Part shown: in pieces, positions 5,780 through 27,775 of the stretch
How the letters are laid out: every line of letters begins with the position of its first letter
Position numbering within the stretch: position 1 is the first letter of the stretch
NCBI RefSeq assembly: GCF_000017305.1
Contig: NC_009664.2
Span: 4,140,001 to 4,172,000, forward strand
Source of the DNA: Kineococcus radiotolerans SRS30216 = ATCC BAA-149
GTDB lineage: Bacteria; Actinomycetota; Actinomycetes; Actinomycetales; Kineococcaceae
DNA: 32,000 bases
Direction: 5' to 3'
Program-made: the position numbers and the translations under genes
The notes under the pieces: model-generated
Databases searched by the model: none
Seen by the model: only the letters and a program-made list of their open reading frames with translations
Told to the model about the DNA's origin: nothing

Positions 5780-7116
5780 TGCGGCCGGGCCGCTTCGTCG
5801 ACACCCGGCCCCTGCGGGTCTCCCCGGCCTTCCGGCGGCTGTGGATCGGCAGCACCGCAGCCGGTCTCAGCGGCCAGCTCGCCGCCACCGCCGTGCTCCA
5901 CCAGGTCTGGGAACTGACCGGCAGCCCGTGGTGGACCGGGACCATCGGCCTGGCCACCGCCGTGCCCACCGTCGTCGGGGGTCTCGTCGGGGGCACCCTG
6001 GCCGACGCGGTCGACCGCCGCCGCCTCGTCCTGGTCACCACTACCGCCACCGTCGCCGCCGCCGGGCTCGCCGCCCAGGCGGGGCCCGGCACCGGGTCCG
6101 TGCTCCTGGTCCTGGCCCTGGTCGTGCTCCAGACCACCGCGACCGCGCTCGGCGCGCCGGCCCGGCGAACGTTCACCACCCGCCTCCTGCCGACCGACCT
6201 CGTCCCCGCCGGGGTGGCGCTGAACCACGTCGGCTTCCAGGTCGCCGTGCTCGCCGGCCCCGCCCTGGCCGGCGTCCTCCTGGCCACCGGTGGCCTGCGC
6301 GCCGCCTACCTCGCCGACGTGCTCGGCCTCACCGTCTCCCTGCACGGCGTGCTGCGCCTCCCCGCCCCGGGGACCGCGTCCCCGCCCCGGCACCCCGCAC
6401 GCAGGACACCGGCGGGGCTGCGGGCGACGGGGGAGGGCTGGCGCTACCTGCTGAGCCGGCCGGAACTGCGCGGCTGCCTGGCCGCCGACCTGGCCGCCAC
6501 CGGCCTGGCCATGCCCGTCGCCCTGTTCCCCGCCGTCAACGACGAACGGTTCGGGGGAGGGGAGCACACCTTCGGGTTGCTCGCCTCCGCCGTCGCCGCC
6601 GGCGGGCTGCTGGCCGGGGCGGCCTCCGGGACGATCACCCGGGTGCCCCGGGCGGGCCGCCTCCTGCTGGTCGCCTCCGCGACCTGGGGTTCGGCGCTGG
6701 CGGCGTTCGCGCTGGTGGACTCCCTGCCCGCCACGCTGCTCTGCCTGGCGGCGGCCGGTGCCGCGGACACCGTGGCCGTCGTCTGCCGCGGCACCCTCGT
6801 GCAGGTCTCCACCCCCGACGCCTACCTGGGCCGCGTCAGCGCCGCGGAGAACGTCGTCGGGGTCGCCGGGCCCGGGCTGGGCAACGCCCGCGCCGGAGCG
6901 GTCGCCGGCCTGACCTCGGCCACGACGTCGGCCCTCACCGGTGGGCTCGCCTGCGTCGTGGTCGTCGGCGTCATCGCGGCCACCACCCCCGCCCTGCGCC
7001 GGTGGCGGCCACCCGCCGCCGTCACCCCCACCAGCGCCGCCACCCCGACGGGTCGGGTGCGGGGGCCGGTTCCTCACCGAGGGCGCGGGCGGCCTCGGCG
7101 ACGTCCTCGGAGGTGA
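5779..7116 (+). CDS. MFS transporter (EntS/efflux-like)
   Basis: The protein has about 12 hydrophobic segments. Its N-terminus [22 protein letters not shown] and the motif [13 protein letters not shown] are typical of MFS_3 exporters. The ATG overlaps the MarR stop by 1 nt. The 3' tail is low complexity. Confidence 0.75.
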
Positions 7117-8059
7117 GCGTCATGACCTCGGCGCGGTCGAGGTCCTCCGCGCTGCGGCCCGCGTCGCGCGTCAGCCGCAGCGCCTGGCGGTTGAGGGCCT
7201 GCTCGAACAACGTGCGGGCGAAGCGCGCGTTGCCGGACTCCTCGCCCGGGTGCAGGCCGCCGAGGATGTGGCGGAGCGTCTCCTCCGCACCCGGCGCCAG
7301 GTCGTACTCGTGCTGGGCGGCGATGATCGCGAAGATCTCCTGGAGCTCGTCGGTGGAGTAGTCGGGGAAGTCGACCTCGCGGGCGAAGCGGGAGCGCAGA
7401 CCGGGGTTGGAGAGCAGGAACGACTCCATCAGCCGGGGGTAGCCGGCCACGATCACCACCAGGCGGTGGCGGTGGTCCTCCATGCGCTTGAGCAGGACCT
7501 CGACGGCCTCGGTGCCGAAGTCGAGCCGGCCGTCGCCCTCGGGCGCCAGCGAGTAGGCCTCGTCGATGAAGAGGACGCCGTCGAGGGCCCGGCGGATGAC
7601 CCGGTCGGTCTTGATCGCCGTCTCCCCGACGTACTGCCCGACCAGGGCGGCCCGGTCGACCTCCACCAGGTGACCCTTCTGCAGCAGGCCGAGCGCCCGG
7701 TACATCTCGGCCAGCAGCCGCGCCACCGTGGTCTTGCCCGTGCCCGGGTTGCCGAGGAACACGAGGTGCTGGGACGTGGCCGCCTCGGGCAGGCCGTGCG
7801 CCTTGCGGCGGGCCTGCACCTGCAGGAAGGCGACGAGCGCCCGCACCTGCTCCTTCACCGTGCTCAGGCCGACGAGCGCGTCGAGCTCGGCCTGCAGGAC
7901 CGGGAGCGGGCGGGCCGGCCCGGGGCGGTTCGCGGAGCGGTCCCCGAAGCGGTCGCCCACCAGTTCGTCCACCCCGCGCAGACCGGAGCGCCCGAGCTGG
8001 TCCCCGAGGCGGGCGACCGTCTCGCGCAGGTCGTCGAGCGCTTTGCGGTTGATGGCCAT
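7022..8059 (-). CDS. AAA+ ATPase, CbbX/SpoVK-like
   Basis: Walker A is GNPGTGKTT and Walker B is [19 protein letters not shown]...RSRF is typical of the CbbX family. ATG at 8059 (MAINRK) is preferred to the ORF-track start at 8161. Confidence 0.8.
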
Positions 8060-8259
8060 GCCGCGAGGGTAGGGGCGCCCGACCCGGGTCTCCTCCCGGG
8101 ACCCGGTGACCGCCGGTGGTGGGGCCACCGCGCGCGGCCCGGTCGCCCGGTACGGGGACACGCACCGGGTCCCCCCGCCGGTCGCCGACTGCTACACAGG
8201 AGTTCCACAGTGCGGTGGCGGGTCCGGGGCACCGCACCTCGGCGAGGACGGGGAACGAC

Positions 8260-15194: not shown

Positions 15195-15640
15195 TCACCC
15201 CTGACCGTCGTACGGGGACCCGGGGGCCTGAGTTTCCCCGGGTTCCCGGGTGGGGTATCGCGGTTGGAGCCGGTGGGGTCCTCCGCTCCGCCGGGCCGCA
15301 CCGCGGGGCCCGGTCGAGAAGGACCGGCTGGACAGGCTGCCGACCTCGACGGTGAGGATCGCCTCAGGGGTGCTGCGCCGGTCCTCGTAGCTCATCGTCC
15401 AGCCCAGCGGCTGCCCGGTGTCGTGGTCGCTGACCGGCCCGACGTGGACGGCGCGGTCCAGGTCGGGGTCGACGCCGAGGAGGGCGTCACGGAAGACGGC
15501 GGTGGCGGTTGCCTGCGGGCCGGGGGTCGCCGTCGCGGACGGGGTGGACGCCGGGCCGGGAGACGGTGCGCTGGCGGTCGGGGCCGGAGCGGTGGACGTC
15601 GACGGGTCGTCCGAGGTCCACCGCGCACCGGCGACGGCGC
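15195..15640 (-). CDS. hypothetical protein, Ser/Thr/Pro-rich linker plus C-terminal domain; 5' end unresolved
   Basis: Only the C-terminal part looks protein-like (TAVFRDALLGVDPDLDRAVHVGPVSDHDTGQPLGWTMSYEDRRSTPEAILTVEVGS). The only in-frame start (15800) overlaps the sigma remnant by about 100 bp. It may be a decayed partner of the sigma gene. Confidence 0.3.
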
Positions 15641-15696
15641 GCGACGGGGTCGCCGGCCCCGCCGGGGTTCGTCCGCGCCGGTGTCGGACGGGTGGG

Positions 15697-15975
15697 TCAT
15701 GGCCGGCCTCCGGTCTTGGTGCGCTTACCGGAGGGACGAGGGGGGCTGGTGCGAGGCTCCGGACCGCGGCGGTCGAGGCCGGTGCGGTCGTCGCGGTCAC
15801 CGGGTCCGAGGTGGGCCTGCAGGACGCTGCGGGCGTGGTGGACGTGGCTCTTGACGGTGCCTTCAGTGATGCTCAGGGCGGCGGTGACCTCGCCGATGGT
15901 GAGGTCCTCGACGCAGCGCAGCAGGACCACCGCGCGCTGGCGCGGGGGAGCGCGGCGATGGCGTCGGGCGGATGG
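15697..15975 (-). pseudogene. ECF sigma factor remnant: region 4 only, plus a 1-nt frameshift
   Basis: PRQRAVVLLRCVEDLTIGEVTAALSITEGTVKSHVHHARSVLQAHL is sigma-70 region 4. The preceding DAIAALP lies in another frame across a G5/C5 run at 15944-15948. No region 2 exists upstream, where a plus-strand GNAT gene sits instead. Confidence 0.65.
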
Positions 15976-16487
15976 AGGATGAGGTCGTGATCCTTCGAGC
16001 GGTGCAGCCGGCCGCGGACGCGGCGGTGGCCGCCAGGCTCCTGCGGCTGCAGCACGACGCCTACGCGGTCGAGGCGGCACTGATCGGTGACGACCGCATC
16101 CCACCGCTGCACGAGGACCTGGAGGCGCTGCGTGCGACCTCGCTGCGTTGGTTCGCGGCCTTCGACGGGGACGAGCTGCTGGGCGCCCTGGGCTGGACGG
16201 AGGACGACACCGGCGTCGACATAGACCGGCTGGTGGTGGCGGTGCACGCCCACCGACGAGGGGCGGGCACCCGACTGGTCCGTGAGGTCCTGCTGCAGGC
16301 GGGAGGACGTTCCGCGACCGTGTCGACGGGACGCGACAACGGCCCGGCCCGAGCCCTCTACGAACAGCTCCTGTTCACCCGCGTCGGTGATCGGGAGGTT
16401 CTGCCCGGTCTGTGGGTCGTCGACTACCGGCGCCCGTCTGCCACCTCGCAGGACAGCGGTGACAGTTCCGCATCAGGACAGAAGTGA
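15972..16487 (+). CDS. GNAT family N-acetyltransferase
   Basis: IDRLVVAVHAHRRGAGTRLVREVL is the acetyl-CoA motif A (R/QxxGxG/A). NGPARALYEQLLF is also present. Third-codon-position GC is high in this frame. Confidence 0.7.
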   Translation: MEDEVVILRAVQPAADAAVAARLLRLQHDAYAVEAALIGDDRIPPLHEDLEALRATSLRWFAAFDGDELLGALGWTEDDTGVDIDRLVVAVHAHRRGAGTRLVREVLLQAGGRSATVSTGRDNGPARALYEQLLFTRVGDREVLPGLWVVDYRRPSATSQDSGDSSASGQK

Positions 16488-16665: not shown

Positions 16666-17595
16666 CTAGAGCCAGTAGGGCACGGCCCCGTGGAACGGCA
16701 ACTGCGCGGAGGCGTAGTACTCCTCCACGGACTGCTCACCCCTCGGCAGCACCGGCAGCAGCAACCCCCGCGTGGTGGCGACGTCTTGCCAGGTCATCGT
16801 GCGGATGTCAGCACTCAACTGCAGCCAGACGGACCCGTCGCGGTTCTCCCGCACCCGCCCACCCGCGGGCAGGACGCTCAGCAACGCGCGCAGGGCGGGG
16901 AGCCCACCGATGACCTCCAGGTGAGCAGGGCGCAGCAGGACACCCCAGCCGTACCCCCACAGGGTCCTGCGCAGGTCACGTTCCCACCACGGAGCGCCCA
17001 CGGCGATCTCCCAGGCGCTGCTGGTGTTGCTGGCGCTGACGTGCTCGTCGAGGGTGAGGTAACCGGTCAGAACGTGGTGCTCGACGCCGGCGCGGCAGAT
17101 CCACTCGGCCAGGGCGTGGGCGGGTGCGGTGGCGTCGTGCTCGCGCAGCAACGCCTGGGGGACCGAGATCGAGAGCGTCGCCCCACGCAGGTCGAGGCAG
17201 GCCTGGAGCCTGTCATTCCAGAAGGTTTCAGGATCGGTGGAACGGCCCGGGCGTTGCGCGGAGACGGCGACGTCCTCGAGGCGGTCTGCTCGCAGGTCTG
17301 CCGTGGGGCCCAGCAGCTCTTCTCCCGCGGTGGCGCGTTCCAGGGCGCTCAGTGCGGTCTCGAGGTCGGTGTCGTACTCGCCGCGGGCGGGTGGGCGGCG
17401 ACCTGCGAGATCGTCGCTGGTGCGCAGGTGGTACTCCGTCCAGTCGGTCACGGTGGGGTGCAGGTGCGGGGCGAGGGCGTTGCGCAGGGCGTCGGTGAGC
17501 AGCAGGGCGAGCTGGGCGGGGGTCGCGGTCTCGGGGGGCAGGGCGACCGCGGCCAGCAGCTGGCGGCGTTCCTCACCGCTGGGGACGGCGTGCAC
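16666..17595 (-). CDS. hypothetical protein (309 aa), possibly immunity-like
   Basis: GTG 17595 has GAGGAG 5 nt upstream. I recognise no catalytic motif. The C-terminal WGVLLRPAHLEVIGGLPALRALLSVLPAGGRV is reminiscent, from memory only, of DUF3396/Imm52-type immunity proteins. Confidence 0.6.
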   Translation of the reverse strand: MHAVPSGEERRQLLAAVALPPETATPAQLALLLTDALRNALAPHLHPTVTDWTEYHLRTSDDLAGRRPPARGEYDTDLETALSALERATAGEELLGPTADLRADRLEDVAVSAQRPGRSTDPETFWNDRLQACLDLRGATLSISVPQALLREHDATAPAHALAEWICRAGVEHHVLTGYLTLDEHVSASNTSSAWEIAVGAPWWERDLRRTLWGYGWGVLLRPAHLEVIGGLPALRALLSVLPAGGRVRENRDGSVWLQLSADIRTMTWQDVATTRGLLLPVLPRGEQSVEEYYASAQLPFHGAVPYWL

Positions 17596-17738
17596 GGATG
17601 CTCCTCGGGATCGGCAGGGGTCGATGCAGCAGGTTCAGCGCTCGAAGGCCCGGCGGCGATGTGGAAGTCACGCGAGTGGGCGACCCACATCCACGATCAG
17701 ACCCGTCTCCGCAGTCTGCCGCAGGCACCCGTGCGCGC

Positions 17739-17749
17739 GGTCATCCCGC
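17739..17749 (+). repeat. junction repeat copy a (core GGTCATCCCGC)
   Basis: Context is gtgcgcgcGGTCATCCCGCGgatggtgcgcgg. The second box ACGTCGCGGTCAT follows 45 nt downstream. The copy is intergenic. Confidence 0.8.
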
Positions 17750-17773
17750 GGATGGTGCGCGGCCCAGCCGCCG

Positions 17774-17807
17774 GCAACGTCGCGGTCATGGCAACGTCGC
17801 GGTCATG
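17774..17807 (+). repeat. perfect 17-bp tandem duplication GCAACGTCGCGGTCATG x2 (second-box sequence of junction a)
   Basis: Read directly: 17774-17790 and 17791-17807 are identical. Confidence 0.85.
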
Positions 17808-17912
17808 ACGATGACCAGGAGATCACCGAGAGCTCAGGAAGCCGGATGAGAAGCTGTAGTGCGGTCGTCGTCGACTCGCCGGTCATCACCGCAAGTGGAG
17901 AGGTAGGCGTCG

Positions 17913-18215
17913 ATGGTCCACCTGGAACGTCACGAGTCCACGATCATCCTGTCCATGGGGCTAGAGGAAGCTGCGCGGCTCTCTGCAGCACTCACCGAGG
18001 CGACGTTGGCGCTGTCTCGAGCCGAGTACTGGATGCGGGTGGGGTGCCCGAAGTCTTCCGTGGAGCAGCTCTCGGACCTGCTTCGCCTTGCCTCGAAGGG
18101 GAAGGGGCAGGGTGCCAGCGTCGCGTTGCCGCCCGGTGAGGAGGAGCAGGAGAATCCCCGGCGACCTCGACCTGGTAGCGACAGCACGGCCCAGCGGGGC
18201 GCTTCGCCGGGATGA
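17913..18215 (+). CDS. hypothetical small protein (100 aa), cassette 1
   Basis: The ATG has GGAGAGG 9 nt upstream. The N-terminal ~65 aa are helical (LEEAARLSAALTEATLALSRAEYWMRVGCPKSSVEQLSDLLRL) and are followed by a charged tail. The stop codon lies inside CGGGATGA, which is complementary to the junction b core. Confidence 0.6.
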   Translation: MVHLERHESTIILSMGLEEAARLSAALTEATLALSRAEYWMRVGCPKSSVEQLSDLLRLASKGKGQGASVALPPGEEEQENPRRPRPGSDSTAQRGASPG

Positions 18216-18237
18216 GGCACCAACACACCGACTTTCC

Positions 18238-18248
18238 GGTCATCCCGC
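18238..18248 (+). repeat. junction repeat copy b (core GGTCATCCCGC)
   Basis: Context is ccgactttccGGTCATCCCGCGtggtgcgcgctgcc. The second box GACGTCACGGTCATGGCC starts 46 nt downstream. CGGGATGA (18208-18215) can pair with TCATCCCG (18240-18247). Confidence 0.8.
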
Positions 18249-18368
18249 GTGGTGCGCGCTGCCACCGGCGACCGAGACGTCACGGTCATGGCCAGGCCGT
18301 TGCCGTCGGGTCACCCCCTCGGCTTCGTCATACATGCGCCGAGCACCCCGACTCACTAGCTTGCTGAC

Positions 18369-18662
18369 ATGATCTTCAAGCGGCAGCCCACGCCAACAGC
18401 AGCCGACATCCCCGATGACGAGGACGCCCCCGGCACGCTGCAATGGCTGCAGGCTTGGTACACCCTGCAGTGCGATGGAGAGTGGGAGCACGGCTGCGGC
18501 ATCTCCATCAGCACTTTGGACAACCCCGGCTGGCACGTGAGCATCGACCTCACGGACACCGCACTGGCCGCCCAGGACGTCGCCCGCCAGGAGGTGCACC
18601 GCAGCGAACACGACTGGTACACCGTGGGGTCTGCCCCTACTTCAGTTGACCCTCGTCAGTAG
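18369..18662 (+). pseudogene. Imm53-like polymorphic-toxin immunity protein, 3' end replaced by IS terminal sequence (cassette 2)
   Basis: LQWLQAWYTLQCDGEWEHGCGISISTLDNPGWHVSIDLTDTAL matches my recollection of the Imm53 family signature (W..CDGDWEH..GI.I.TLDNPGW...IDL..T). From codon GGG at 18627 the reading frame runs into the IS inverted repeat. Confidence 0.6.
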
Positions 18663-18668
18663 GGGCGG

Positions 18669-19541
18669 TCAGGCCGCGTGAGCGGCTTGCAGGAGTGTCT
18701 CGTACTCGATGGGTGTCAGTCGACCCAGCGCTTGCTGACGACGGCGGCGGTGATAGGTCCCCTCGATCCACGAGACGATGGCCAGGCGCAGCTCCTCCCG
18801 ACTGGCCCAGCGCCGGCGGTTGAGGACGTTCTTCTGCAGCAGGCTGAAGAACGACTCCATGGCGGCGTTGTCCGCGCAGGTCCCGACCCGACCCATCGAC
18901 CCACGCGCTTGCCCTGCCGAAAGAGCGCGAAGGTAGCGGTGGGAACGAAATTGGGCTCCGCGGTCCGAGTGGACCACGAGCTCAAGGACATCGGTCCCAC
19001 CGCGCAGTGCCAGCGCGTTCGACAGGGCTTGGACGGCGAGGTCGGCAGTCATGCGGGCATCGATGGAGTAGCCGACGATGCGGTTGGAGCAGGCGTCCTT
19101 GACCGCGCAGAGGTAGAGCTTGCCTTCGGCGGTGGGATGTTCGGTGATGTCGGTTAGCCAGAGGGCGTTCGGCTTCTCAGCGGTGAACTTACGGCGGACG
19201 AGGTCGTCGTGCACGGGTGGTCCCGGCCGGCGCCCGGCGCCGCGTCTGCGGGCGTGGGCTGAGAACAGCTTCTGCAGGCTGCACAAGCGCTGGACGCGGT
19301 TGCGCGAGGTCCTGACGCCCTGCTGCTGCAGCTCGTCGGCGATGAAGCGGTAGCCGAACTCGGGGTCGTCGTGGTGGATGTCGACGGCGGCGTTGAGGAG
19401 GTGAGCGTCGTTCCAGTCCCGGTCGGTGACCGGAGCGGCGCGCCACTTGAAGTAAGCCTGCTTGGAGAAGCCCAGCACCCGACAGGTCACCGCGACGGGG
19501 ATCCCGTCGCCGGCAAGGTCACGGACCAGCGGGTAGATCAT
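18669..19541 (-). CDS. IS3-family transposase OrfB (DDE integrase core)
   Basis: The DDE triad context is WLTDITEHPT, VVHSDRGAQF and CADNAAMESFFSLLQKN. The frame is intact. Confidence 0.85.
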   Translation of the reverse strand: MIYPLVRDLAGDGIPVAVTCRVLGFSKQAYFKWRAAPVTDRDWNDAHLLNAAVDIHHDDPEFGYRFIADELQQQGVRTSRNRVQRLCSLQKLFSAHARRRGAGRRPGPPVHDDLVRRKFTAEKPNALWLTDITEHPTAEGKLYLCAVKDACSNRIVGYSIDARMTADLAVQALSNALALRGGTDVLELVVHSDRGAQFRSHRYLRALSAGQARGSMGRVGTCADNAAMESFFSLLQKNVLNRRRWASREELRLAIVSWIEGTYHRRRRQQALGRLTPIEYETLLQAAHAA

Positions 19542-19846
19542 TTTGGCAACGTGTCACGGGCGAAGTACGCCGTCGCCCGCCGCAGGATCTCGTTCTCCTG
19601 CTCCAGCTGCTTGGCCCGCTTACGCAGCTCCCGGTTCTCCGCCTCGAGGTCCACGCCCACGGCAGGCGTGCTGTTGGACGCCGTCTTGCCGTCCTCGCGG
19701 TCAGCGATCCTCAGCCAGCGACCCAGGCAGGACTCGGAGATCCCGAAGCTGCTAGCGATCTTCGCTCGGGTCTGCCCGCCTTGGCGGGCGACGGCGATCA
19801 CGTCGCGGCGGAACTCGTCGGGGTAGCGCTTGTGCACGGTGCTCAT
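19538..19846 (-). CDS. IS3-family transposase OrfA (HTH)
   Basis: MSTVHKRYPDEFRRDVIAVARQGGQTRAKIASSFGISESCLGRWL is followed by the coiled coil LEAENRELRKRAKQLEQENEILRRATAYFA. It overlaps OrfB by 4 nt (CCAAAATGATC). Confidence 0.8.
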   Translation of the reverse strand: MSTVHKRYPDEFRRDVIAVARQGGQTRAKIASSFGISESCLGRWLRIADREDGKTASNSTPAVGVDLEAENRELRKRAKQLEQENEILRRATAYFARDTLPK

Positions 19847-19982
19847 CCTTCCAGCGAGGACCATGATCCTCACAGGTCGGAGTCAACCAAAGCGGGGGCA
19901 GACCCGACGGTCTTCAACGTCGGCAGCAGCGTCACTGCAGGGCCCGAGACCTGATCCCCACCCTGCACGAGCTCAAACCGCG

Positions 19983-19993
19983 CGGTCATCCTG
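19983..19993 (+). repeat. junction repeat copy c (variant GGTCATCCTGC)
   Basis: Context is aaaccgcgcGGTCATCCTGCGatatgggtgcgcc. A GGTCAC box lies 48 nt downstream. The copy sits 28 nt after the putative original Imm53-like stop (19952-19954). Confidence 0.7.
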
Positions 19994-20007
19994 CGATATG
20001 GGTGCGC

Positions 20008-20373
20008 CTACTCGCCCGCCCCGGTGCGCCAGGTCACCGACAAAATGGGCTTGGTCTGCAACCACAAGCCCTCGACAGGCAGCTGATCGTCGAAGACGAG
20101 GCCCAGCAGCTCCCGCCCCGCCCGCTTCTCCACCACCAGCGACCGCACCTGATGCAGCTCCAGACCCACCAGCTCATCACCGCCCGAGCTCAGCGACAGC
20201 TTGACCAGCTCCGAAGCCGGCTCCACCTCAACCTCCACGTGGAGGGAGCCACGAGTCAGGGCGAAGCGGACGCAGGCGTAGGACCACGGCGCGTCCTCGA
20301 CACCGAAGGGGTACACCGGCTCGCTCTCGAAGAGCCAGACCAGGTCCTTCAGCGCGGGCATCGGATCCATCAC
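20008..20373 (-). CDS. hypothetical small protein (121 aa), cassette 3
   Basis: MMDPMPALKDLVWLFESEPVYPFGVEDAPWSYACVRFALTRGSLHVEVEVEP... has a beta-rich, non-repetitive composition. The antisense ORF 20002..20586 is Q/R/H-rich and is rejected. Confidence 0.6.
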   Translation of the reverse strand: MMDPMPALKDLVWLFESEPVYPFGVEDAPWSYACVRFALTRGSLHVEVEVEPASELVKLSLSSGGDELVGLELHQVRSLVVEKRAGRELLGLVFDDQLPVEGLWLQTKPILSVTWRTGAGE

Positions 20374-20428
20374 CTGATCACTGTGCCTGTTGTCCGCGCG
20401 ACTGCGCGCCCCGCCACCGAGACTCCAC

Positions 20429-20439
20429 GGTCATCCCGC
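20429..20439 (+). repeat. junction repeat copy d (core GGTCATCCCGC)
   Basis: Context is ccgagactccacGGTCATCCCGCtggtctcgtg. It is flanked by the 6-bp inverted repeat CGAGAC/GTCTCG. Confidence 0.8.
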
Positions 20440-20695
20440 TGGTCTCGTGTGTCAGGCCGTCCATCCTGGAGCTTCGGCCCTGCAAACGTGCTCAGGCGCG
20501 TCTGGATCTCCGTGCTCCATCTCGTACGAGCACTCCCCGCACCCCTCGGTTGGATCATGCTCTCGCCAGTCATGGCCACAGGTTGAGCAATCGCCGTGGT
20601 AGGCCTACCGGGCTCGCTCCTCCTGCCGGCGGGTCCACCACAGCCTCAGCGTCTGGCGCACGTCATGAGCATGGCAGTAGCGGCGCCGACTTCAC

Positions 20696-20706
20696 GGTCA
20701 TCCCGC
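20696..20706 (+). repeat. junction repeat copy e (core GGTCATCCCGC)
   Basis: Context is agcggcgccgacttcacGGTCATCCCGCagatcgggtcac. The 5' flank is nearly identical to that of copy g. Confidence 0.8.
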
Positions 20707-20853
20707 AGATCGGGTCACTTGGAGCCCTCCACTACTCACCGTTCAGCTCGCTCAACGTCTCCGCGTCCACCGCCCGGGGAGCGGCCTCGATGTAGACCAC
20801 CGCCTGTCGAGGCCCGGCTTTGATGGAGACCTGCAAGTGACGCCTCCGAGAGG

Positions 20854-21183
20854 ATGATGGTCTCCATGGCTGCGCCCAGGAAGTACCCCGACGAGCTGCG
20901 TGAGCGAGCTATCCGTATGGCGCTGGACGCGCGCCGCGACCCCACCACCCGGGTCAACGCCTTCAAACGCATCGGCGGCCAGCTCGGCATCAACGCCGAG
21001 ACCCTGCGCAACTGGGTCCTGCAGGCCGAGGTCAACGCCGGCGACCGGCCCGGTACTACGACCGACGCCGCGGCTCGCCTGGCCGAGCTCGAGCGGGAGA
21101 ACCGTGAGCTTCGCCGAGCCAACGAAATCTTGCGCCGCGCATCGGCTTTCTTCGCGGCGGAGCTCGACCGCCCCTCTCGCTGA
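20854..21183 (+). CDS. IS3-family transposase OrfA (HTH)
   Basis: MAAPRKYPDELRERAIRMALD...NAETLRNWV is followed by LAELERENRELRRANEILRRASAFFAAE. Confidence 0.8.
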   Translation: MMVSMAAPRKYPDELRERAIRMALDARRDPTTRVNAFKRIGGQLGINAETLRNWVLQAEVNAGDRPGTTTDAAARLAELERENRELRRANEILRRASAFFAAELDRPSR

Positions 21184-22102
21184 GCACCTGGCCAAGCACC
21201 GACCGGGTCGTCGAGTTCATCGACACCAACAAGCAGGAGCTGGGAATCGAGCCGATCTGCCGTGAGCTGCAGATCGCCCCCAGCACGTACTACGCCGCCC
21301 GCCACCGACCACCCTCGGCCCGCGCGGTCAGCGACCAGGCCGCCCTGGTCGAGATCAACGAGGTCCACGCCGAGAACCTGCGCGTCTACGGAGCCAGGAA
21401 GCTGCACGCAGCCATCAACCGCCGCCGCGCCCAGCGCTGCCCACCGGGCCAGACACCGGCCCGCATCGCGCGCTGCACCGTCGAACGCCTGATGCGCTCA
21501 GCCGGACTGCACGGGCTACGCCGCAACGGTAAGCCACCACGGACCACGGTCTCAGCCGCACCCGATCAGCGCCCGGACTTGGTGCAGCGGAGGTTCTCCG
21601 CTGAGCGTCCTGACCGTTTGTGGGTCGCCGACATCACCTACATCCGCACCTGCTCGGGCTGGGTCTACGCTGCGTTCGTCACCGACGTCTGCACCCGGCG
21701 GGTCGTGGGCTGGCAGGTCGCCACCCACCTGCGGACCGAACTGGCCCTGGACGCGCTGCAGATGGCGTTCTGGGCCCGCCGGCGCGAAGGCGTGGACCTG
21801 ACGGGGCTGACGCACCACAGCGACAAGGGCGTCCAATACGTCGCCGTTCGCTACAGCGAGCGTTGGCCGCTGAGGGTGCGGTCGCCTCCGTCGGTTCTAC
21901 CGGTGATTCCTACGATAATGCGCTGGCGGAGGCGTTCAACTCCCTCTTCAAGACCGAGTGCATCCGCAACCCTCACGTCCCCGGCCGCGACGGTCCCTGG
22001 CGCGGCATCGACGACGTCGAGATCGCGGTGGCGGAGTACGTCGACTGGTACAACCACCGACGCCTGCACGGCGAGCTCGGGATGATTCCGCCGGTGGAGT
22101 AG
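21180..22102 (+). pseudogene. IS3-family transposase OrfB with internal 1-nt frameshift
   Basis: The frame is open from 21180, with DDE context WVADITYIRT and THHSDKGVQY. After VRYSER (about 21863) the frame breaks. The conserved remainder LAAEGAVASVGSTGDSYDNALAEAFNSLFKTE...WYNHRRLHGELG continues in another frame. CGTTGG is present where CGTTTGG would restore the frame. Confidence 0.75.
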
Positions 22103-22164
22103 GAGGCCCGCTTCAGCACCACTCCCGCCCTGACGGGCGGCTGAGCGTTGCTTCACACCCTCCA

Positions 22165-22461
22165 TCAGACCCGGGCCTTGACAGCCTCAACGACCCTGCC
22201 GCGCTGGCCTCGGGGTGCAAGCACCCGGCGCACCGCAGCAACCGCAGCCTGGACGGCCACTTCTTCATCCGCCTCGGTCAGTGCCGGGCTGATGATGGCG
22301 ACGCGTCCACCCCCATCCGTGGGGTCCTGCACGCAGGGCTCACCCGGTAAGGAAGCGGCCAGGGCGTCGAGGTCCTCAGACGTCCACGGCTGTTCCAACT
22401 CCCAGGTCAGGTAGACGGTATGGCCCACCTCGGTGTCGTCGACCACCACACGAGGATGCAC
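22165..22461 (-). pseudogene. hypothetical small protein interrupted by the IS at its 3' end (cassette 5)
   Basis: The ORF reads MHPRVVVDDTEVGHTVYLTWELEQPWTSEDLDALAASLPGEPCVQDP.... Its stop codon (22165-22167) lies inside the IS terminal repeat. A strongly coding-looking tail (QAVVYIEAAPRAVDAETLSELNGE, stop at 20732-20734) lies left of the IS. Confidence 0.5.
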
Positions 22462-22497
22462 CAGACCCGACAGCTCGCGTCACGTCGGGGAACGTCC

Positions 22498-22508
22498 GGT
22501 CATCCCGC
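22498..22508 (+). repeat. junction repeat copy f (core GGTCATCCCGC)
   Basis: Context is gtcggggaacgtccGGTCATCCCGCcgcctgggcgg. A degenerate second copy ACGGGTCCGCGCTCA lies about 30 nt downstream. Confidence 0.8.
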
Positions 22509-22573
22509 CGCCTGGGCGGTTGACGGGTCCGCGCTCACGACCAAACGCCCCGCACTGCACCACACTGGGTCAC

Positions 22574-23038
22574 GTGCCAGCGCCCACCTCGGATCACCTC
22601 CGATCTGACCTGTGCCGCACCTGGGACGACGTCGCCGCCGGACGCCTCAGCCGCACCGCCGCCGCCGACTGGGCCGCCGACCCCGACCGCGCCCTGGACT
22701 ACTCCAGCGGACCCGAGCCACTGCACCAGGCGTGGCTGCTCCTGCACGACCTGCGCCGCGCCCCGCTGAACGAAGCCGCCGTCATCAGCGGCGGCCACCT
22801 CGCACGCGATGAGCTGGCCATGCGCCGGCGTGAGCAGTGGCAGGCCGAGCTCGCCCGCTACGACGCGGACCCGTTGAGCTGGAACCGCACCCACTGGAGC
22901 GCCTACCTGCGCCGCACCGTCGAAGCGGGCCGCCACCCCGCACCCGACCGCCTCGCTGCCCGACTCATCGAGCACGGCCTCTTCCTCGACCAGGATGCTG
23001 CGGCGGTCCTGGATGAGGCCTGGTCAAACCGTACCTGA
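22574..23038 (+). CDS. hypothetical protein (about 154 aa), cassette 6
   Basis: From GTG 22574 the protein reads VPAPTSDHLRSDLCRTWDDVAAGRLSRTAAADWAADPDRAL...SWNRTHWSAYLRRTVEAGRH.... The ORF-track start at 22433 would read across junction f, so a later start is preferred. It is helical and Trp-rich. Confidence 0.5.
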   Translation: MPAPTSDHLRSDLCRTWDDVAAGRLSRTAAADWAADPDRALDYSSGPEPLHQAWLLLHDLRRAPLNEAAVISGGHLARDELAMRRREQWQAELARYDADPLSWNRTHWSAYLRRTVEAGRHPAPDRLAARLIEHGLFLDQDAAAVLDEAWSNRT

Positions 23039-23055
23039 GCGGGGCGGCACTTCAC

Positions 23056-23066
23056 GGTCATCCCGC
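23056..23066 (+). repeat. junction repeat copy g (core GGTCATCCCGC)
   Basis: Context is tgagcggggcggcacttcacGGTCATCCCGCGctcagtgcgcg. The second box GACGTCGCGGTCTT lies 47 nt downstream. The copy sits 18 nt after the cassette 6 stop. Confidence 0.8.
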
Positions 23067-23159
23067 GCTCAGTGCGCGATCATGGACAGTCGGCGACGTC
23101 GCGGTCTTGTCGATCTGGGGACGTCCAGGTGGGTGGGCTGGCGCCCTTCCGTCGAACGC

Positions 23160-23546
23160 TCAGGCCCGGACCTCCCGCTCCAGACGTCGGGCGGTCACCC
23201 GGTAGCCGCCTTCCCCGAAGCAGTGCCACAGCTTCGCCCCGCTCGCCCGGGCCAGCTGGTGGAGGCCGGTCAGGACGGTGCGGACGTCCTCCTCCCGGGC
23301 GTCGGCGTCGAGGCCGAGCTCACCGACCACCACCCGGCACCGGCCGTCCTCGCCACGCAGGAGATTGATGTCGTACACCGCCGTCGGCAGGCTCCACGAC
23401 CCCTCGTCCTCACCGTCGACCAGGTCCGCGCCCAGCGCGTCGAAGCGCCGCCGCAGCAGCGCCTCATCGAGAACGGCCAGTCGGTCCAGGGCGTCCTCGT
23501 CGTAGTGGCGCAGACGGCCGGCGAAGACCGCGTACTCAGTGCCCAC
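23160..23546 (-). CDS. hypothetical protein (128 aa), distal gene of two-gene cassette 7
   Basis: GTG 23546 is preceded by GGAGGAGG. The protein reads VGTEYAVFAGRLRHYDEDALDRLAVLDEALLRRRFDALGADL...LWHCFGEGGYRVTARRLE. The upstream part of ORF 23160..23930 is off-frame. Confidence 0.55.
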   Translation of the reverse strand: MGTEYAVFAGRLRHYDEDALDRLAVLDEALLRRRFDALGADLVDGEDEGSWSLPTAVYDINLLRGEDGRCRVVVGELGLDADAREEDVRTVLTGLHQLARASGAKLWHCFGEGGYRVTARRLEREVRA

Positions 23547-24144
23547 CGGGACCTCCTCCCGGACCGGTGCCGACCACGGACAGTGCGAAGTCGTGCAGGA
23601 GGTCGGGGTCCTGCCCCCGCTGGTACATGTGCTGAGCCAGGGCCTGGCCGTAGACGATGCCGACGGGGTCGACCTCCGCGGAGCCGTGCGCCCACGGCCC
23701 CTGGAGCATGGTGGCGTGGTGGTTGATGTCGCGGGCCCGGCCCCGGCTCTTCTGCCGGTACACGATCCACCGCGCCTGCGGCACGGCGGTCTGCAGGACG
23801 GTGCCCAGGTAGGCGGCGACCTCGTCGACCAGGCGCAGCTGGCGCGGGGACAGGTAGCGGGTGGGGCGGTCGGTGATCGGGTCGCGGTCGGGCAGCGGCT
23901 GCTGCACGTCCCACCACAGCGGCGACTCATCGAAGCCGTCGTCGGTGTCGTCGGTGTCGGCGTCCAACCGCGCGACGAACCAAGGCCCCAGCTGCCGCAG
24001 GCTGTCCACGCTGCCGTCCAGGCGCGGCCCGCCGGTGCCAGCCACCTGCTCCTGGAGACGCTGCACCAGCCGCGGCAGCGCCGCCATGTAGGCGTCGCGG
24101 TGGGCCAGCGCCTGCTCGTGGCTCATCTCCATGAACTTCAGCAC
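23536..24144 (-). CDS. hypothetical protein (202 aa), proximal gene of two-gene cassette 7
   Basis: The protein reads MLKFMEMSHEQALAHRDAYMAALPRLVQRLQEQVAGTGGPRLDGSVDSLRQLGPWFVARL.... Its stop overlaps the start of the next gene by 11 nt. Confidence 0.55.
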   Translation of the reverse strand: MLKFMEMSHEQALAHRDAYMAALPRLVQRLQEQVAGTGGPRLDGSVDSLRQLGPWFVARLDADTDDTDDGFDESPLWWDVQQPLPDRDPITDRPTRYLSPRQLRLVDEVAAYLGTVLQTAVPQARWIVYRQKSRGRARDINHHATMLQGPWAHGSAEVDPVGIVYGQALAQHMYQRGQDPDLLHDFALSVVGTGPGGGPGGH

Positions 24145-24260
24145 GCGATCACGTTAGAGAGTGCGCTTCAGCCGGAGAGACGCCATCACCGCACCAGGGC
24201 CGGGCAGCCGCCCTGCCGGGCTGGACACAGGCGGCATCGGCAGCTGGTGACGGATCTTCC

Positions 24261-24271
24261 GGTCATCCCGC
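24261..24271 (+). repeat. junction repeat copy h (core GGTCATCCCGC)
   Basis: Context is gacggatcttccGGTCATCCCGCGttgtgggcgccgatcac. Confidence 0.8.
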
Positions 24272-24285
24272 GTTGTGGGCGCCGA

Positions 24286-24735
24286 TCACTCAGGCTGGCA
24301 ACCCTGCCCACTCTCCAGCGCCGCGACGTCAGGACACCGGTCGTGGCTCCACTCCCCGGAGCCGAAGGAGTCCGCGGTGGCGTCGGTGAAGACCTCCACC
24401 CCCTCACCGGGCCGCACCCGGTAGTACGTCTCGATCGGGTCGCCTTCCGTGGTCAGCGACGTCACCAGGACCTCCGCACCTTCGCGCTGCGCACCCGCGC
24501 TGAGCAGGCACTCCGTCAGGGCCGTCGGGATGGGCTGGGCCTGGGGGACGGTGATCGAGGCGCACTGCGGCAAGGGGGAGCGTTCCCGGAACGCCGCCGG
24601 GGCTCGCCCGCCGGCGCTGAGCTGCCACACCACCCATGCGCCCATGCCGGTGGCGAAGAGCAGCAGCACGACGCCCAGCACTGTGACGAGGGGGACGGGT
24701 CGTCTCGGCGGGGCTCCAGCGACTGTGCTGTCCAT
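24286..24735 (-). CDS. membrane-anchored protein with Cys-containing extracytoplasmic domain (DUF4362-like), cassette 8
   Basis: ATG 24735 gives MDSTVAGAPPRRPVPLVTVLGVVLLLFATGMGAWVVW as a TM anchor. VLVTSLTTEGDPIETYYRVRPGEGVEVFTDATADSFGSGEWSHDRC resembles, from memory, the T.EGDPI...D.t.D.fG...C pattern of DUF4362. Confidence 0.5.
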   Translation of the reverse strand: MDSTVAGAPPRRPVPLVTVLGVVLLLFATGMGAWVVWQLSAGGRAPAAFRERSPLPQCASITVPQAQPIPTALTECLLSAGAQREGAEVLVTSLTTEGDPIETYYRVRPGEGVEVFTDATADSFGSGEWSHDRCPDVAALESGQGCQPE

Positions 24736-24795
24736 CTCCGCATGATGCTCGCGCACTGGCAGGTGCGAAGGGTCGTTCGACGCATCCGACGTCAC

Positions 24796-24806
24796 AATCA
24801 TCCCGC
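24796..24806 (+). repeat. junction repeat copy i (variant AATCATCCCGC)
   Basis: Context is ccgacgtcacAATCATCCCGCGctgttg. A related box GAGACGTCACATCAC lies at about 24886. Confidence 0.65.
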
Positions 24807-25090
24807 GCTGTTGTAGGTGGCCGCCGCCAACTCAGCTCCAAGATCGTCGCAGATGTCCTGACCATCGACTGTCGCCGATGTCCTGAGACGTCACATCACT
24901 GAGGCTTCGTCAGCAACGCTTCGTCCTTGCGGGCGAACCCTCACCGGGTCGTTGTTCATGGGCGGACGTCGGAGCGCTGGGCGGTCCACATCGGCCGGTG
25001 ACGATCGTCGTCTGCTCATCGCCCGCGGGTCGCGTGGGGAGCCGCCAGGGCCACGGATCCCACGGCACGACGCTCTGTGACGATGCAGGG

Positions 25091-26096: not shown

Positions 26097-27775
26097 ATGA
26101 AGCGCGCCGGGTCGGGTCCCCGGGCAGGGGCTGCTCTGCGTGGCCCGGTGCGGGCCGCCGCTGCCGCTCTCACCGCGGTGCTGGTGACCGCCGGCTGCAC
26201 CGGGGGCGGTGGAGGCGTACTGCCGTCCACCCCGACCTCCACCGGCACCGGCACCGGGGCCACCTCTGCCGAGACGACCTCGTCCGGGGCAGGGGAACCG
26301 GCCGTCGTGCGGGCCGCCCCGCTCGACGGCGGCGTCCTGCAGCTCGGGCTGCACCCCCTGGTCCGCGTCGGCGGGCCGGCGGCGGTCGGTGACCTGGTGG
26401 TGCTGACCCTCGACCTCACGGTGGAGGAGGCACCGGACGACGGGGAGATCTCCCTGGGCGACCTGTTCCGCGACCCGGTGGGTGACCGCACACCCATGGG
26501 CGGCGTGCGGCTGCTGGACCTGCGGGCGGACGTGGCGCACTCCGTCGCCCTCGACACCGCGGGCGACGGGGTGCTGACCGAGGGGTACTCGGGCCTGGGG
26601 GGTGTCCGGCCGGGCGAGACGGTGCGCCTGCAGGCCGCCTACGCGGCTCCTCCGGCGGGAACCCCGGACGTCGCGGTGCTGCTGCCCGGCACCGGGCTCG
26701 TCGAGGCACTGGCGGTCGTCGACGGCGAGCTGCCGGGACCGACGCCCGACCTCACCCCAGACGCCTCCACGGGCACGGGTACGGGCACGGCGGAGGACGG
26801 TCCCGCACCGCTCGACCCGGACGGGGCGGCGACGGCGGCGGTGCGTCCGCTGGAGGTCTACGCCGAGGACCTGCAGGGCACCGTCCGCACCGAGACCAGC
26901 GATGCGGGAGCGCGGGTGGCGCTCGCCGCGGACGTGCTCTTCGCCCTCGACTCGGCCGAGCTGAGCCCCGAAGCCAGGGCGGTCCTGGAGACGGCCGCCA
27001 CCGACGTGCTCACCCGCCGGCCGGGTCCGGTGGCCGTGGTGGGGCACACCGACGACCAGGGCGCCGACGACTACAACCTCGACCTGTCCCGGCGCCGGGC
27101 GCAGGCGGTCGCCGACGTGCTCGGACCCCTGCTCGGGGCCGACTACCCGCTCCAGGTGGACGGTCGCGGCGAGGCCGAACCGGCGGTCCCGGGGCCCTCG
27201 ACGGAGGCCCGCGCCCGCAACCGCCGTGTGGAGCTGGTCGTCAGCACGCCGTCGACGGGGGCCGCGCTGGGGCGGCGCACCGGTGAGGTGCTGCCCGCCC
27301 GGCGGCCATCGCGACCGGTCCGGAGGGGCTGGTCGTCGAGTCGCAGACCGGCTGGCCGTTCCGCGTGCGCACCGCGGCGGCTCGCCGGGTGCAGGGGAAC
27401 GTCGTGGTGGACTTGGAGATCACCGCGTTGCCGGCGACGGCCGGCGCGGCGGGCCTGCCGCCGGCCCCGAACCTCTTCAGCACCTTCCGCGACCCCCGCG
27501 ACTTCGCGGTGACCGACGGCTCGAACACCATCCGCGGGGCGGTGCTGCTGCAGGGCAGCACGGCGGTCTTCCCGCTCTTCGCGGCCGTCGGCGATGCGCC
27601 CTCACCCCGGCTGTGCGCGTGCGCGCTGAACGTGCGGGCGCTGGCCGAGGGGCAGGTGCTCACCGCGAGCGCCATCTACCCGGACCTGGACGCCGACGAG
27701 GTGGTGCTGCAGAACACCCCGGTGACGAGCGCAGACGTCGCCGCCCGGCTGACCGGAATCCCCGTGACCGGCTGA
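26097..27775 (+). pseudogene. OmpA-family lipoprotein with an apparent 1-nt frame switch near 27297-27301 (or an assembly indel)
   Basis: The signal and lipobox are MKRAGSGPRAGAALRGPVRAAAAALTAVLVTAGC. The OmpA_C-like region is VVGHTDDQGADDYNLDLSRRRAQAVADVL...GRGEAEPAVPG...ARARNRRVELVV. After EVLPA the ORF-track frame turns Arg/Pro-rich. A frame with very high third-position GC continues as PAAIATGPEGLVVESQTGWPFRV... to 27775. Confidence 0.6.

Follow-up and report, generated by a model that had tools for sequence, protein, structure and literature searches.

We analysed a 32,000-nucleotide stretch of the Kineococcus radiotolerans SRS30216 (= ATCC BAA-149) genome (contig NC_009664.2, positions 4,140,001 to 4,172,000, forward strand), hereafter the window, in which a run of small genes is separated by direct copies of a short junction site (Table 1). 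Genes were called from the GC content of third codon positions (the GC3 heuristic), as plain lists of open reading frames (ORFs) are useless at the ~75% GC of this DNA. A sequence-only reading of the region, made before any database search, had described small, mutually unrelated ORFs in repeat-separated cassettes and proposed that they are orphan immunity genes. The first part of that description was borne out: all-against-all BLASTP found no similarity among ORFs A to I, the genes between the sites lie on both strands (three on + and five on -), and GC falls to 67-72% across the array compared with 74-79% in the flanks. ORF G had been missed by the sequence-only reading and forms a two-gene cassette with ORF H.

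Allowing at most one mismatch, the window contains nine matches to the core GGTCATCCCGC where 1.8 are expected. Eight of them fall inside the array, and the remaining one, at 27565, is due to chance. Including the variant core AATCATCCCGC at 24796, the array comprises nine sites, all on the + strand and extending from 17739 to 24806, and a site profile recovered no further copy in the 32-kb window; the junction site proposed for these cassettes is upheld. The site consensus spans ~30 nt, CGACyTCAC-GGTCATCCCGC-GGTGCGCG, around an invariant 12-nt core, CGGTCATCCCGC, and over 161 Kineococcus sites reads CGACyTCAC-GGTCATCCCGC-GGTGCGCGCG. Array boundaries at 17739 and 24806 are consistent with the non-consensus left half of the first site and the variant core of the last; given that left half, site 1 probably marks the edge of the array. 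On the + strand, genes end 18-23 nt ahead of a site, and on the - strand they begin 0-144 nt past one. The ATG of gene I lies inside the last, variant core (24796-24806; GCGGGATGATT on the reverse strand), such that recombination at this core would be predicted to exchange the start-codon context of gene I. As a general rule for - strand genes a start at the core ATG was rejected, being true for I and false for D, where the ATG is out of frame.

Additional half-sites accompany some cores. Of 154 Kineococcus sites, 74 have a second half-site, TCrCGGTC, downstream, with a preference for spacings of 23-25 or 40-43 nt, whereas an upstream control gave 33; these half-sites may serve as accessory binding sites. 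In the window, partial second half-sites follow site 1 at 17773 and 17790, and partial repeats of the left half-site (GACGTCGCGGTCATGGC) were seen ~35 nt past some cores (17773-17806, 18272-18289 and 23092-23108). The core is followed by a small palindromic segment, CGCG-GTG-CGCG. The post-core segment was considered as a possible attC-like hairpin: RNAalifold gave no consensus structure, and the folding energy of the site is marginally lower than that of shuffled sequence (-5.3 versus -4.3 kcal/mol), a small gain. An Rfam scan of the window returned only the ALIL frameshift element of an insertion sequence (IS), and no family matches the junction site.

Table 1. Features of the cassette array and its surroundings, in coordinates of the 32-kb window.
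Feature	Coordinates	Strand	Remarks
Sigma-70 region-4 fragment	15697-16104	-	overlaps GNAT gene
GNAT gene	15972-16487	+	overlaps sigma-70 fragment
ORF A	16666-17595	-	309 aa; near-orphan; just left of site 1, outside array
Junction site 1	17730-17769	+	core GGTCATCCCGC 17739-17749; non-consensus left half
ORF B	17913-18215	+	100 aa; no family; moderate coding signal
Junction site 2	18229-18268	+	core 18238-18248
ORF C	18369-18662	+	97 aa; Imm53 match; 3' end enters left inverted repeat of IS3a
IS3a (IS3 family)	18621-19911	-	orfA 19538-19873; orfB 18669-19541; inverted repeats 18621-18650 and 19882-19911
Junction site 3	19975-20014	+	variant core GGTCATCCTGC 19984-19994; homology to locus L130 begins at 19983
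ORF D	20008-20373	-	121 aa; all-beta; cassette gene
Junction site 4	20420-20459	+	core 20429-20439
257-bp cassette with zinc-ribbon-like ORF	20440-20695	-	~75 aa; CxxC...CxxC
Junction site 5	20687-20726	+	core 20696-20706; consensus left half GACTTCAC
IS3b (IS3 family)	20804-22184	+	orfA 20854-21183; orfB split; right inverted repeat 22160-22184
ORF E	22165-22461	-	98 aa; no family; 3' end inside inverted repeat of IS3b
Junction site 6	22489-22528	+	core 22498-22508
ORF F	22574-23038	+	154 aa; no family
Junction site 7	23047-23086	+	core 23056-23066
ORF G	23160-23546	-	128 aa; no family; Shine-Dalgarno GGGAGGAGG; overlaps end of H by 11 nt
ORF H	23536-24144	-	202 aa; weak DUF6278 signal; confident AlphaFold2 model
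Junction site 8	24252-24291	+	core 24261-24271
ORF I	24286-24801	-	171 aa; ATG inside last core
Junction site 9	24787-24826	+	variant core AATCATCCCGC 24796-24806; last site, right end of array

An exact scan with ACTYYMCGGTCATCCCGC, using one genome per species, returned at least 120 loci, and among the matches listed all multi-copy loci belong to Kineococcus. Counted by site profile over the Kineococcus loci, six more reached through protein look-ups and the window itself, there are 161 sites in 21 loci from at least 12 species, 147 of them with the exact core, at a median spacing of 648 bp (interquartile range 390-1277 bp), and none of the 21 loci mixes strands. The units between sites recur among these arrays. 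Cassette F (window 22472-23082) is 86% identical at the DNA level to positions 60-668 of locus L116 from Kineococcus sp. NPDC059986, with unrelated flanks, and the 257-bp unit (20440-20695) is present at two places in the Kineococcus sp. DHX-1 chromosome (loci L106 and L120; 88% identity). A second K. radiotolerans strain has an array with at least 19 sites, whose chromosomal surroundings differ, and shares with the window both D together with the 257-bp unit (94.5%, window 19983-20715) and F (85%, window 22492-23066), each from core to core. Core-to-core homology is likewise shared by several further cassette pairs in other arrays, and the homologues of ORF I (41-52% amino acid identity) are cassettes in two other Kineococcus arrays. 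Alignment of the 257-bp unit locates the limits of exchange more closely, in that the context-specific DNA lies left of the core at the left boundary and right of it at the right boundary. Since homology begins and ends at the core, the exchange point is placed within the invariant core or at its edge, and one end of each unit thus carries the post-core half-site, while the opposite end has GACyTCAC together with the core. These alignments show that the units between sites are discrete cassettes recurring in different arrays and neighbourhoods. No conserved array-flanking gene is common to the window and the other arrays. Array DNA searched against plasmids retrieved only IS3 relatives, and a tblastn search of plasmids with H retrieved nothing.

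Tandem 'empty' units were also observed (loci L114, L120, L125 and others), in which two cores 25-35 nt apart are joined by ggtgcgcgcggagcgcac; this sequence consists of a right half-site followed by a left half-site, as expected once a cassette has been lost.

Inside the arrays of other Kineococcus species, and on the strand of the sites, lies a ~310-residue Xer-like tyrosine recombinase whose closest relatives in the PDB are XerD (1e-21), XerA and an XerC-like protein, and in which the RHRY residues and the catalytic region are conserved. It is present in loci L029 and L021, in K. endophyticus (L125/126) and in K. aurantiacus (L128, where the array extends over at least 17 kb), and recombinase fragments in SYSU DK001 share contigs with an 18-site array and with a homologue of D. 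The family is large (6,532 matches at E<1e-20), multi-copy in some genomes, and conserved at 70-92% identity from Kineococcus to Cellulomonas, Motilibacter, Jatrophihabitans, Actinomadura and Pseudonocardiaceae; its C-terminus, HPNYILAAYM(A/S)SGT, is invariant (metagenome loci L133-L212, and L127, L131 and L132). Several copies of a related core, G[GC]TCATGCCGC, surround the recombinase in Cellulomonas, Motilibacter and Jatrophihabitans, where its neighbours are many small ORFs lacking annotation, together with toxin-antitoxin pairs, one SMI1_KNR4 gene and one Imm8 gene. Across 80 metagenome loci (427 kb) the related core occurs 32 times on the recombinase strand and twice on the other, with ~2 expected per strand, and the 220 nt upstream of the recombinase start contain a core-like motif in 23 of 67 loci compared with 4 of 56 control windows. 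Often the site, in the form tccG[GC]TCATGCCGCgcctgg, stands ~100 nt or less upstream of the recombinase start, with a toxin-antitoxin pair just downstream of the gene. Exact-sequence look-ups returned no record for the recombinase P0005, nor for H or I.

Turning to the cargo of the window, the assignment of the ORF at 18369 to the Imm53 family of polymorphic-toxin immunity proteins, made by the sequence-only reading, is confirmed by profile search (Pfam PF15580; E 5.2e-25, 87.5 bits versus a cut-off of 25). The domain is incomplete: ORF C covers only positions 1-64 of the 92-position profile, so that the C-terminal third is missing, and when the IS3 element is removed in silico and its flanks are joined the match still extends only over positions 1-65. 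The Imm53 gene is most likely inactive, to judge from the missing third of the profile, the position of its 3' end in the IS3 repeat and the failure of in silico joining to rescue it. The 309-aa protein ORF A, the C-terminus of which had been likened to Imm52/DUF3396 immunity proteins, has no Pfam, NCBIfam, PADLOC or PDB-sequence match even at E<=1; with every profile search negative, we rejected the Imm52/DUF3396 assignment. A search of 5.8 billion proteins found two ORF A sequences, itself and a K. aurantiacus protein (57% identity), neither with a Pfam domain, and the gene for the latter lies outside any repeat array, beside GmrSD_C and NOV_C genes and no polymorphic toxin. ORF A, just left of the first site, is not demonstrably a cassette.

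The remaining ORFs (B, D, E, F, G, H and I) match no significant family in Pfam, NCBIfam or PADLOC. ORF D has 13 homologues, all in Kineococcus or on unassigned metagenome contigs, none annotated and none with a Pfam family; the one homologue context examined is another cassette array and contains no toxin gene. Homologues beside toxin genes, which the immunity proposal would lead one to look for, were thus found neither for A (in K. aurantiacus) nor for D (in that one context). Structural comparison, also suggested at the time, was no more favourable. The AlphaFold2 model of D is poor (predicted local distance difference test score, pLDDT, 55), too poor for a structure search, and the confident model of H (pLDDT 90, predicted template modelling score 0.88) has no neighbour at E<0.001 in the PDB or in BFVD, a collection of viral protein structures. 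The H family has 87 representatives, its DUF6278 signal is sub-threshold, and longer homologues contain no additional Pfam domain that hints at function. PDB sequence searches with A, H and D gave nothing meaningful. ORF I begins with a hydrophobic stretch that we read by eye as a membrane anchor. NCBIfam and PADLOC, the latter a set of defence-system models, returned zero matches for any of the ten array-region ORFs, which therefore do not register as an anti-phage defence island. Of the orphan-immunity cargo that had been proposed, one Imm53 cassette stands and no further immunity match was found among ten window ORFs, leaving the wider proposal weakly supported. That the one such cassette is a truncated Imm53 gene suggests that toxin immunity is an occasional type of cargo and not the purpose of the island.

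A similar picture emerges across the genus. Approximately 180 ORFs were called in the Kineococcus loci, almost all of them singletons in all-against-all BLASTP, and Pfam scans were run on ten large ORFs, 100 array ORFs and 43 small ORFs. Recognisable enzymes are GNAT acetyltransferases, methyltransferases, HIT proteins, a CN hydrolase, a peptidase M19 and a luciferase-like monooxygenase; regulators are sigma-70 region-4 proteins, helix-turn-helix regulators, MarR and TetR; and the remainder includes the toxin-antitoxin parts PIN and Phd, the transporters LysE and MFS (major facilitator superfamily), LytR-CpsA-Psr, GrpB, DUF6518, a TerD-DUF4041-T5orf172 protein and IS elements. Imm53 appears once among the 100 array ORFs, as the window's own copy, with no other Imm family among the commonest 25 of 56 families, and none of the 43 small ORFs from other Kineococcus arrays matches an Imm family. 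Precomputed annotations of three further arrays are 65-80% blank, and include GNATs, an APH-family kinase and an ECF sigma factor. Other immunity genes, Imm8 and SMI1_KNR4, stand beside the recombinase in two other genera (Jatrophihabitans and Motilibacter). By analogy, this generalist and mostly unknown cargo is typical of chromosomal integrons rather than of a dedicated immunity island.

One cassette in Kineococcus sp. DHX-1 (locus L106, 4524-6635) encodes a 703-aa TerD-DUF4041-T5orf172 (MUG113) protein, a domain combination also seen in candidate anti-phage genes. Defence genes may be another class of cargo.

The copy of the array in the window appears to be in decay. IS3a is inserted in the Imm53 cassette and adjoins the truncated ORF C, and ORF E, probably truncated by IS3b, overlaps at its 3' end with the right inverted repeat of that element. 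IS3b is itself probably defective, because its orfB is split into two frames. An ALIL pseudoknot (Rfam RF01497; 21144-21281, E 3.5e-8, below the gathering score) lies at the frameshift site between orfA and orfB of IS3b. The zinc-ribbon-like ORF of the 257-bp cassette has an in-frame TAG in the window copy, and scans of the called genes found no tyrosine or serine recombinase in the window. [quoted passage not shown]

Left of the array, DNA at 15806-15983 and 15333-15632 is 73-77% identical to cassette material of other Kineococcus arrays. A search for degenerate sites left of 17739, over the GNAT gene and the sigma-70 fragment, found none. The GNAT/sigma-70 region (15333-16487) may represent relic cassettes without their sites.

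By Pfam, the rest of the window encodes regulators, oxidoreductases, an MFS transporter, an AAA ATPase, an epoxide hydrolase, a GNAT protein, an OmpA-domain protein and proteins of no assigned function, and it contains no tRNA gene to act as an integration target. In agreement with the absence of toxin and secretion genes noted from the letters alone, Pfam scans of all called window genes found no Rhs, LXG, WXG100, CdiA, nuclease, deaminase or secretion domain. The AAA ATPase (7022-8161), which has an AAA_lid_6 domain and a CbbX/SpoVK/EccA-like architecture, is the only window gene conceivably related to secretion, and no other type VII component lies nearby.

We interpret positions 17739-24806 as eight inter-site units bounded by nine direct copies of a ~30-nt recombination site, with gene A just outside. 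In the proposed mechanism the units would leave the array as circles and be inserted again through conservative site-specific recombination between cores, in the manner of integron cassettes, and the putative enzyme would be an Xer-like tyrosine recombinase, as indicated by its position in arrays, its orientation on the site strand and the related cores found with it in other genera and in soil metagenomes. We consider it likely that the region is a copy, without a recombinase, of an undescribed integron-like cassette system of actinobacteria that carries generalist cargo, here with one broken Imm53 cassette. The expectation in the sequence-only reading that an actinobacterial system of this kind would be new fits a literature search of incomplete coverage, which found no paper on this site or on Kineococcus or actinobacterial integron-like cassettes. 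On the broader proposal, that a cassette-capture system is widespread in Actinomycetota, with a dedicated Xer-like recombinase family of more than 6,500 homologues, a core GGTCAT(C/G)CCGC and traded immunity genes (Imm53, Imm8, SUKH), our judgement is evenly divided.

Several points weigh against the integron-like interpretation. Mobility is read from comparative genomics only, and the association between recombinase and site is strong but correlational: the Kineococcus recombinase genes have no site immediately upstream, and the recombinase could be an independent mobile element that targets or carries the site. Across arrays the genes show no preferred orientation with respect to the sites (53 share the strand of the sites and 72 lie opposite), which departs from the integron pattern and leaves their expression without an explanation. 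No function can be assigned to most of the cargo, such that unrecognised immunity proteins are possible among it, and the Pfam result for the 100 array ORFs covers the commonest 25 of 56 families. The gene calls themselves, in DNA of 75% GC, depend on the GC3 heuristic.

The explanation originally offered was a stockpile of orphan immunity genes resembling the acquired interbacterial defence (AID) and recombinase-associated AID (rAID) clusters, in which most cassettes would neutralise incoming polymorphic toxins. The significant Imm53 match of ORF C speaks for it, as do the small, unrelated ORFs without accompanying toxins, the Imm8 and SMI1_KNR4 genes that adjoin a related recombinase in Jatrophihabitans and Motilibacter, and a rAID-1-like combination of skewed GC, intergenic repeats and, in other genomes, an XerD-like recombinase; the mostly unknown cargo also leaves room for novel immunity families. 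However, only one of the ten window ORFs matches an immunity family and that gene is truncated, ORF A fails all Imm52/DUF3396 profile tests, the small ORFs of other Kineococcus arrays contribute no Imm match among 43, and the recognisable cargo is metabolic, regulatory or toxin-antitoxin in nature. No known immunity fold in the PDB resembles the confident model of H, the homologues of D and A are not beside toxin genes, and the genes are not co-directional downstream of a recombinase as the rAID-1 definition has it. We regard a stockpile of this kind as unlikely.

If, instead, the recombinase belongs to a separate selfish element that sits at or carries the core, the cassettes would have moved by other means, for example by homologous recombination between repeats. 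Such an element would account for the 70-92% identity of the recombinase across several actinobacterial orders and for its multiple copies in some genomes, for the toxin-antitoxin pair that often follows it, for the metagenome core just upstream of the gene, as in an element with its own attachment site, and for a K. radiotolerans window that has an array and no recombinase. It fits poorly with a core that is strongly enriched and strand-locked around the recombinase at cassette-like distances, and with Kineococcus recombinases that lie within arrays of up to 17 kb in the site orientation. Moreover, an invariant 12-nt core with variable half-sites is the requirement of a conservative site-specific recombinase, and an 11-nt repeat is too short for efficient RecA-dependent exchange; a separate element thus seems improbable to us. 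The repeats could also be read as dispersed elements of the repetitive extragenic palindromic (REP) or miniature inverted-repeat transposable element (MITE) type, or as regulatory elements (terminators or promoters), in an ordinary variable genomic island. Although the site is short and GC-rich, has a small palindrome after the core and follows the ends of + strand genes at 18-23 nt, it has no copy elsewhere in the 32-kb window, keeps a uniform strand within each of the 21 loci, folds only marginally better than shuffled sequence and matches no Rfam family, and blocks of between-genome homology start and stop at the core with their contexts shuffled. We give this last explanation very little credence.

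Integrons are the standard bacterial platform for capturing and shuffling genes, and the integron-like interpretation, if true, would mean that cassette platforms evolved more than once. It would also reveal that soil actinobacteria, the main antibiotic producers, hold a large reservoir of mobile genes without known function, and would provide a short defined site and an enzyme that are testable and perhaps useful for genome engineering in high-GC bacteria. For studies of interbacterial defence the locus carries a caution, in that a single Imm-family match among small unknown genes does not amount to an immunity stockpile.

Among known systems, integrons and CALIN elements share the most with the Kineococcus arrays, and no complete integrons were found in Actinobacteria in the 2016 IntegronFinder survey (Cury et al. 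2016, PMC4889954). The likeness lies in arrays of small, diverse and mostly unknown cassettes with sites in one orientation; in cassettes that are shared and reshuffled between arrays, with exchange bounded from core to core; in toxin-antitoxin cassettes and IS insertions within arrays; and in the possibility of arrays without a nearby integrase, with a tyrosine recombinase as the candidate enzyme. The site itself differs: that of Kineococcus is ~30 nt long with an invariant 12-nt core, whereas attC is an imperfect palindrome of 60-140 nt with GTTRRRY, a motif that the Kineococcus consensus lacks when the two are compared by consensus. The recombinase is XerD-like, with no integron integrase among its PDB matches at E<1e-5, and lies inside the array on the site strand, whereas that of integrons is divergent at the attI end, and the cassette genes of Kineococcus face either way (53 versus 72).

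The rAID-1 clusters of Bacteroidales are defined by a recombinase at the 5' end and, after it, genes in one direction that are for the most part homologues of immunity genes (Ross et al., bioRxiv 10.1101/471110). Kineococcus resembles them in its XerD-family recombinase (in other genomes of the genus), in arrays that reach tens of genes, in an orphan immunity gene, and in skewed GC with repetitive intergenic sequences (67-72% versus 74-79%, and nine sites). However, the window has no recombinase and in other Kineococcus arrays it is internal and not 5', the genes face both ways, immunity genes make up ~1% of recognisable cargo, and both the phylum and the site are different. Polyimmunity loci, reportedly described by Zhang, Aravind and co-workers in 2012, are said to contain several recognisable Imm families in tandem. 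The window is like them in having an Imm53 gene without an adjacent toxin among small genes, but it has one Imm family, and repeat-bounded cassettes fall outside the polyimmunity definition. The pdif modules of Acinetobacter plasmids are flanked by inverted pairs of XerC/XerD sites and use the housekeeping Xer proteins, and cis-mobilizable elements (CIMEs) arise by site-specific accretion at the attachment sites of integrative and conjugative elements. Both resemble the Kineococcus cassettes in being discrete modules with short Xer-type or integrase sites at their limits, in occurring in varied contexts and in relying on an enzyme that acts in trans; in contrast to pdif modules, the Kineococcus sites are direct repeats in long chromosomal arrays, and a dedicated accessory recombinase family is implicated. 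By these analogies the Kineococcus system appears closer to the integron and its CALIN derivatives than to a dedicated AID or rAID immunity island.

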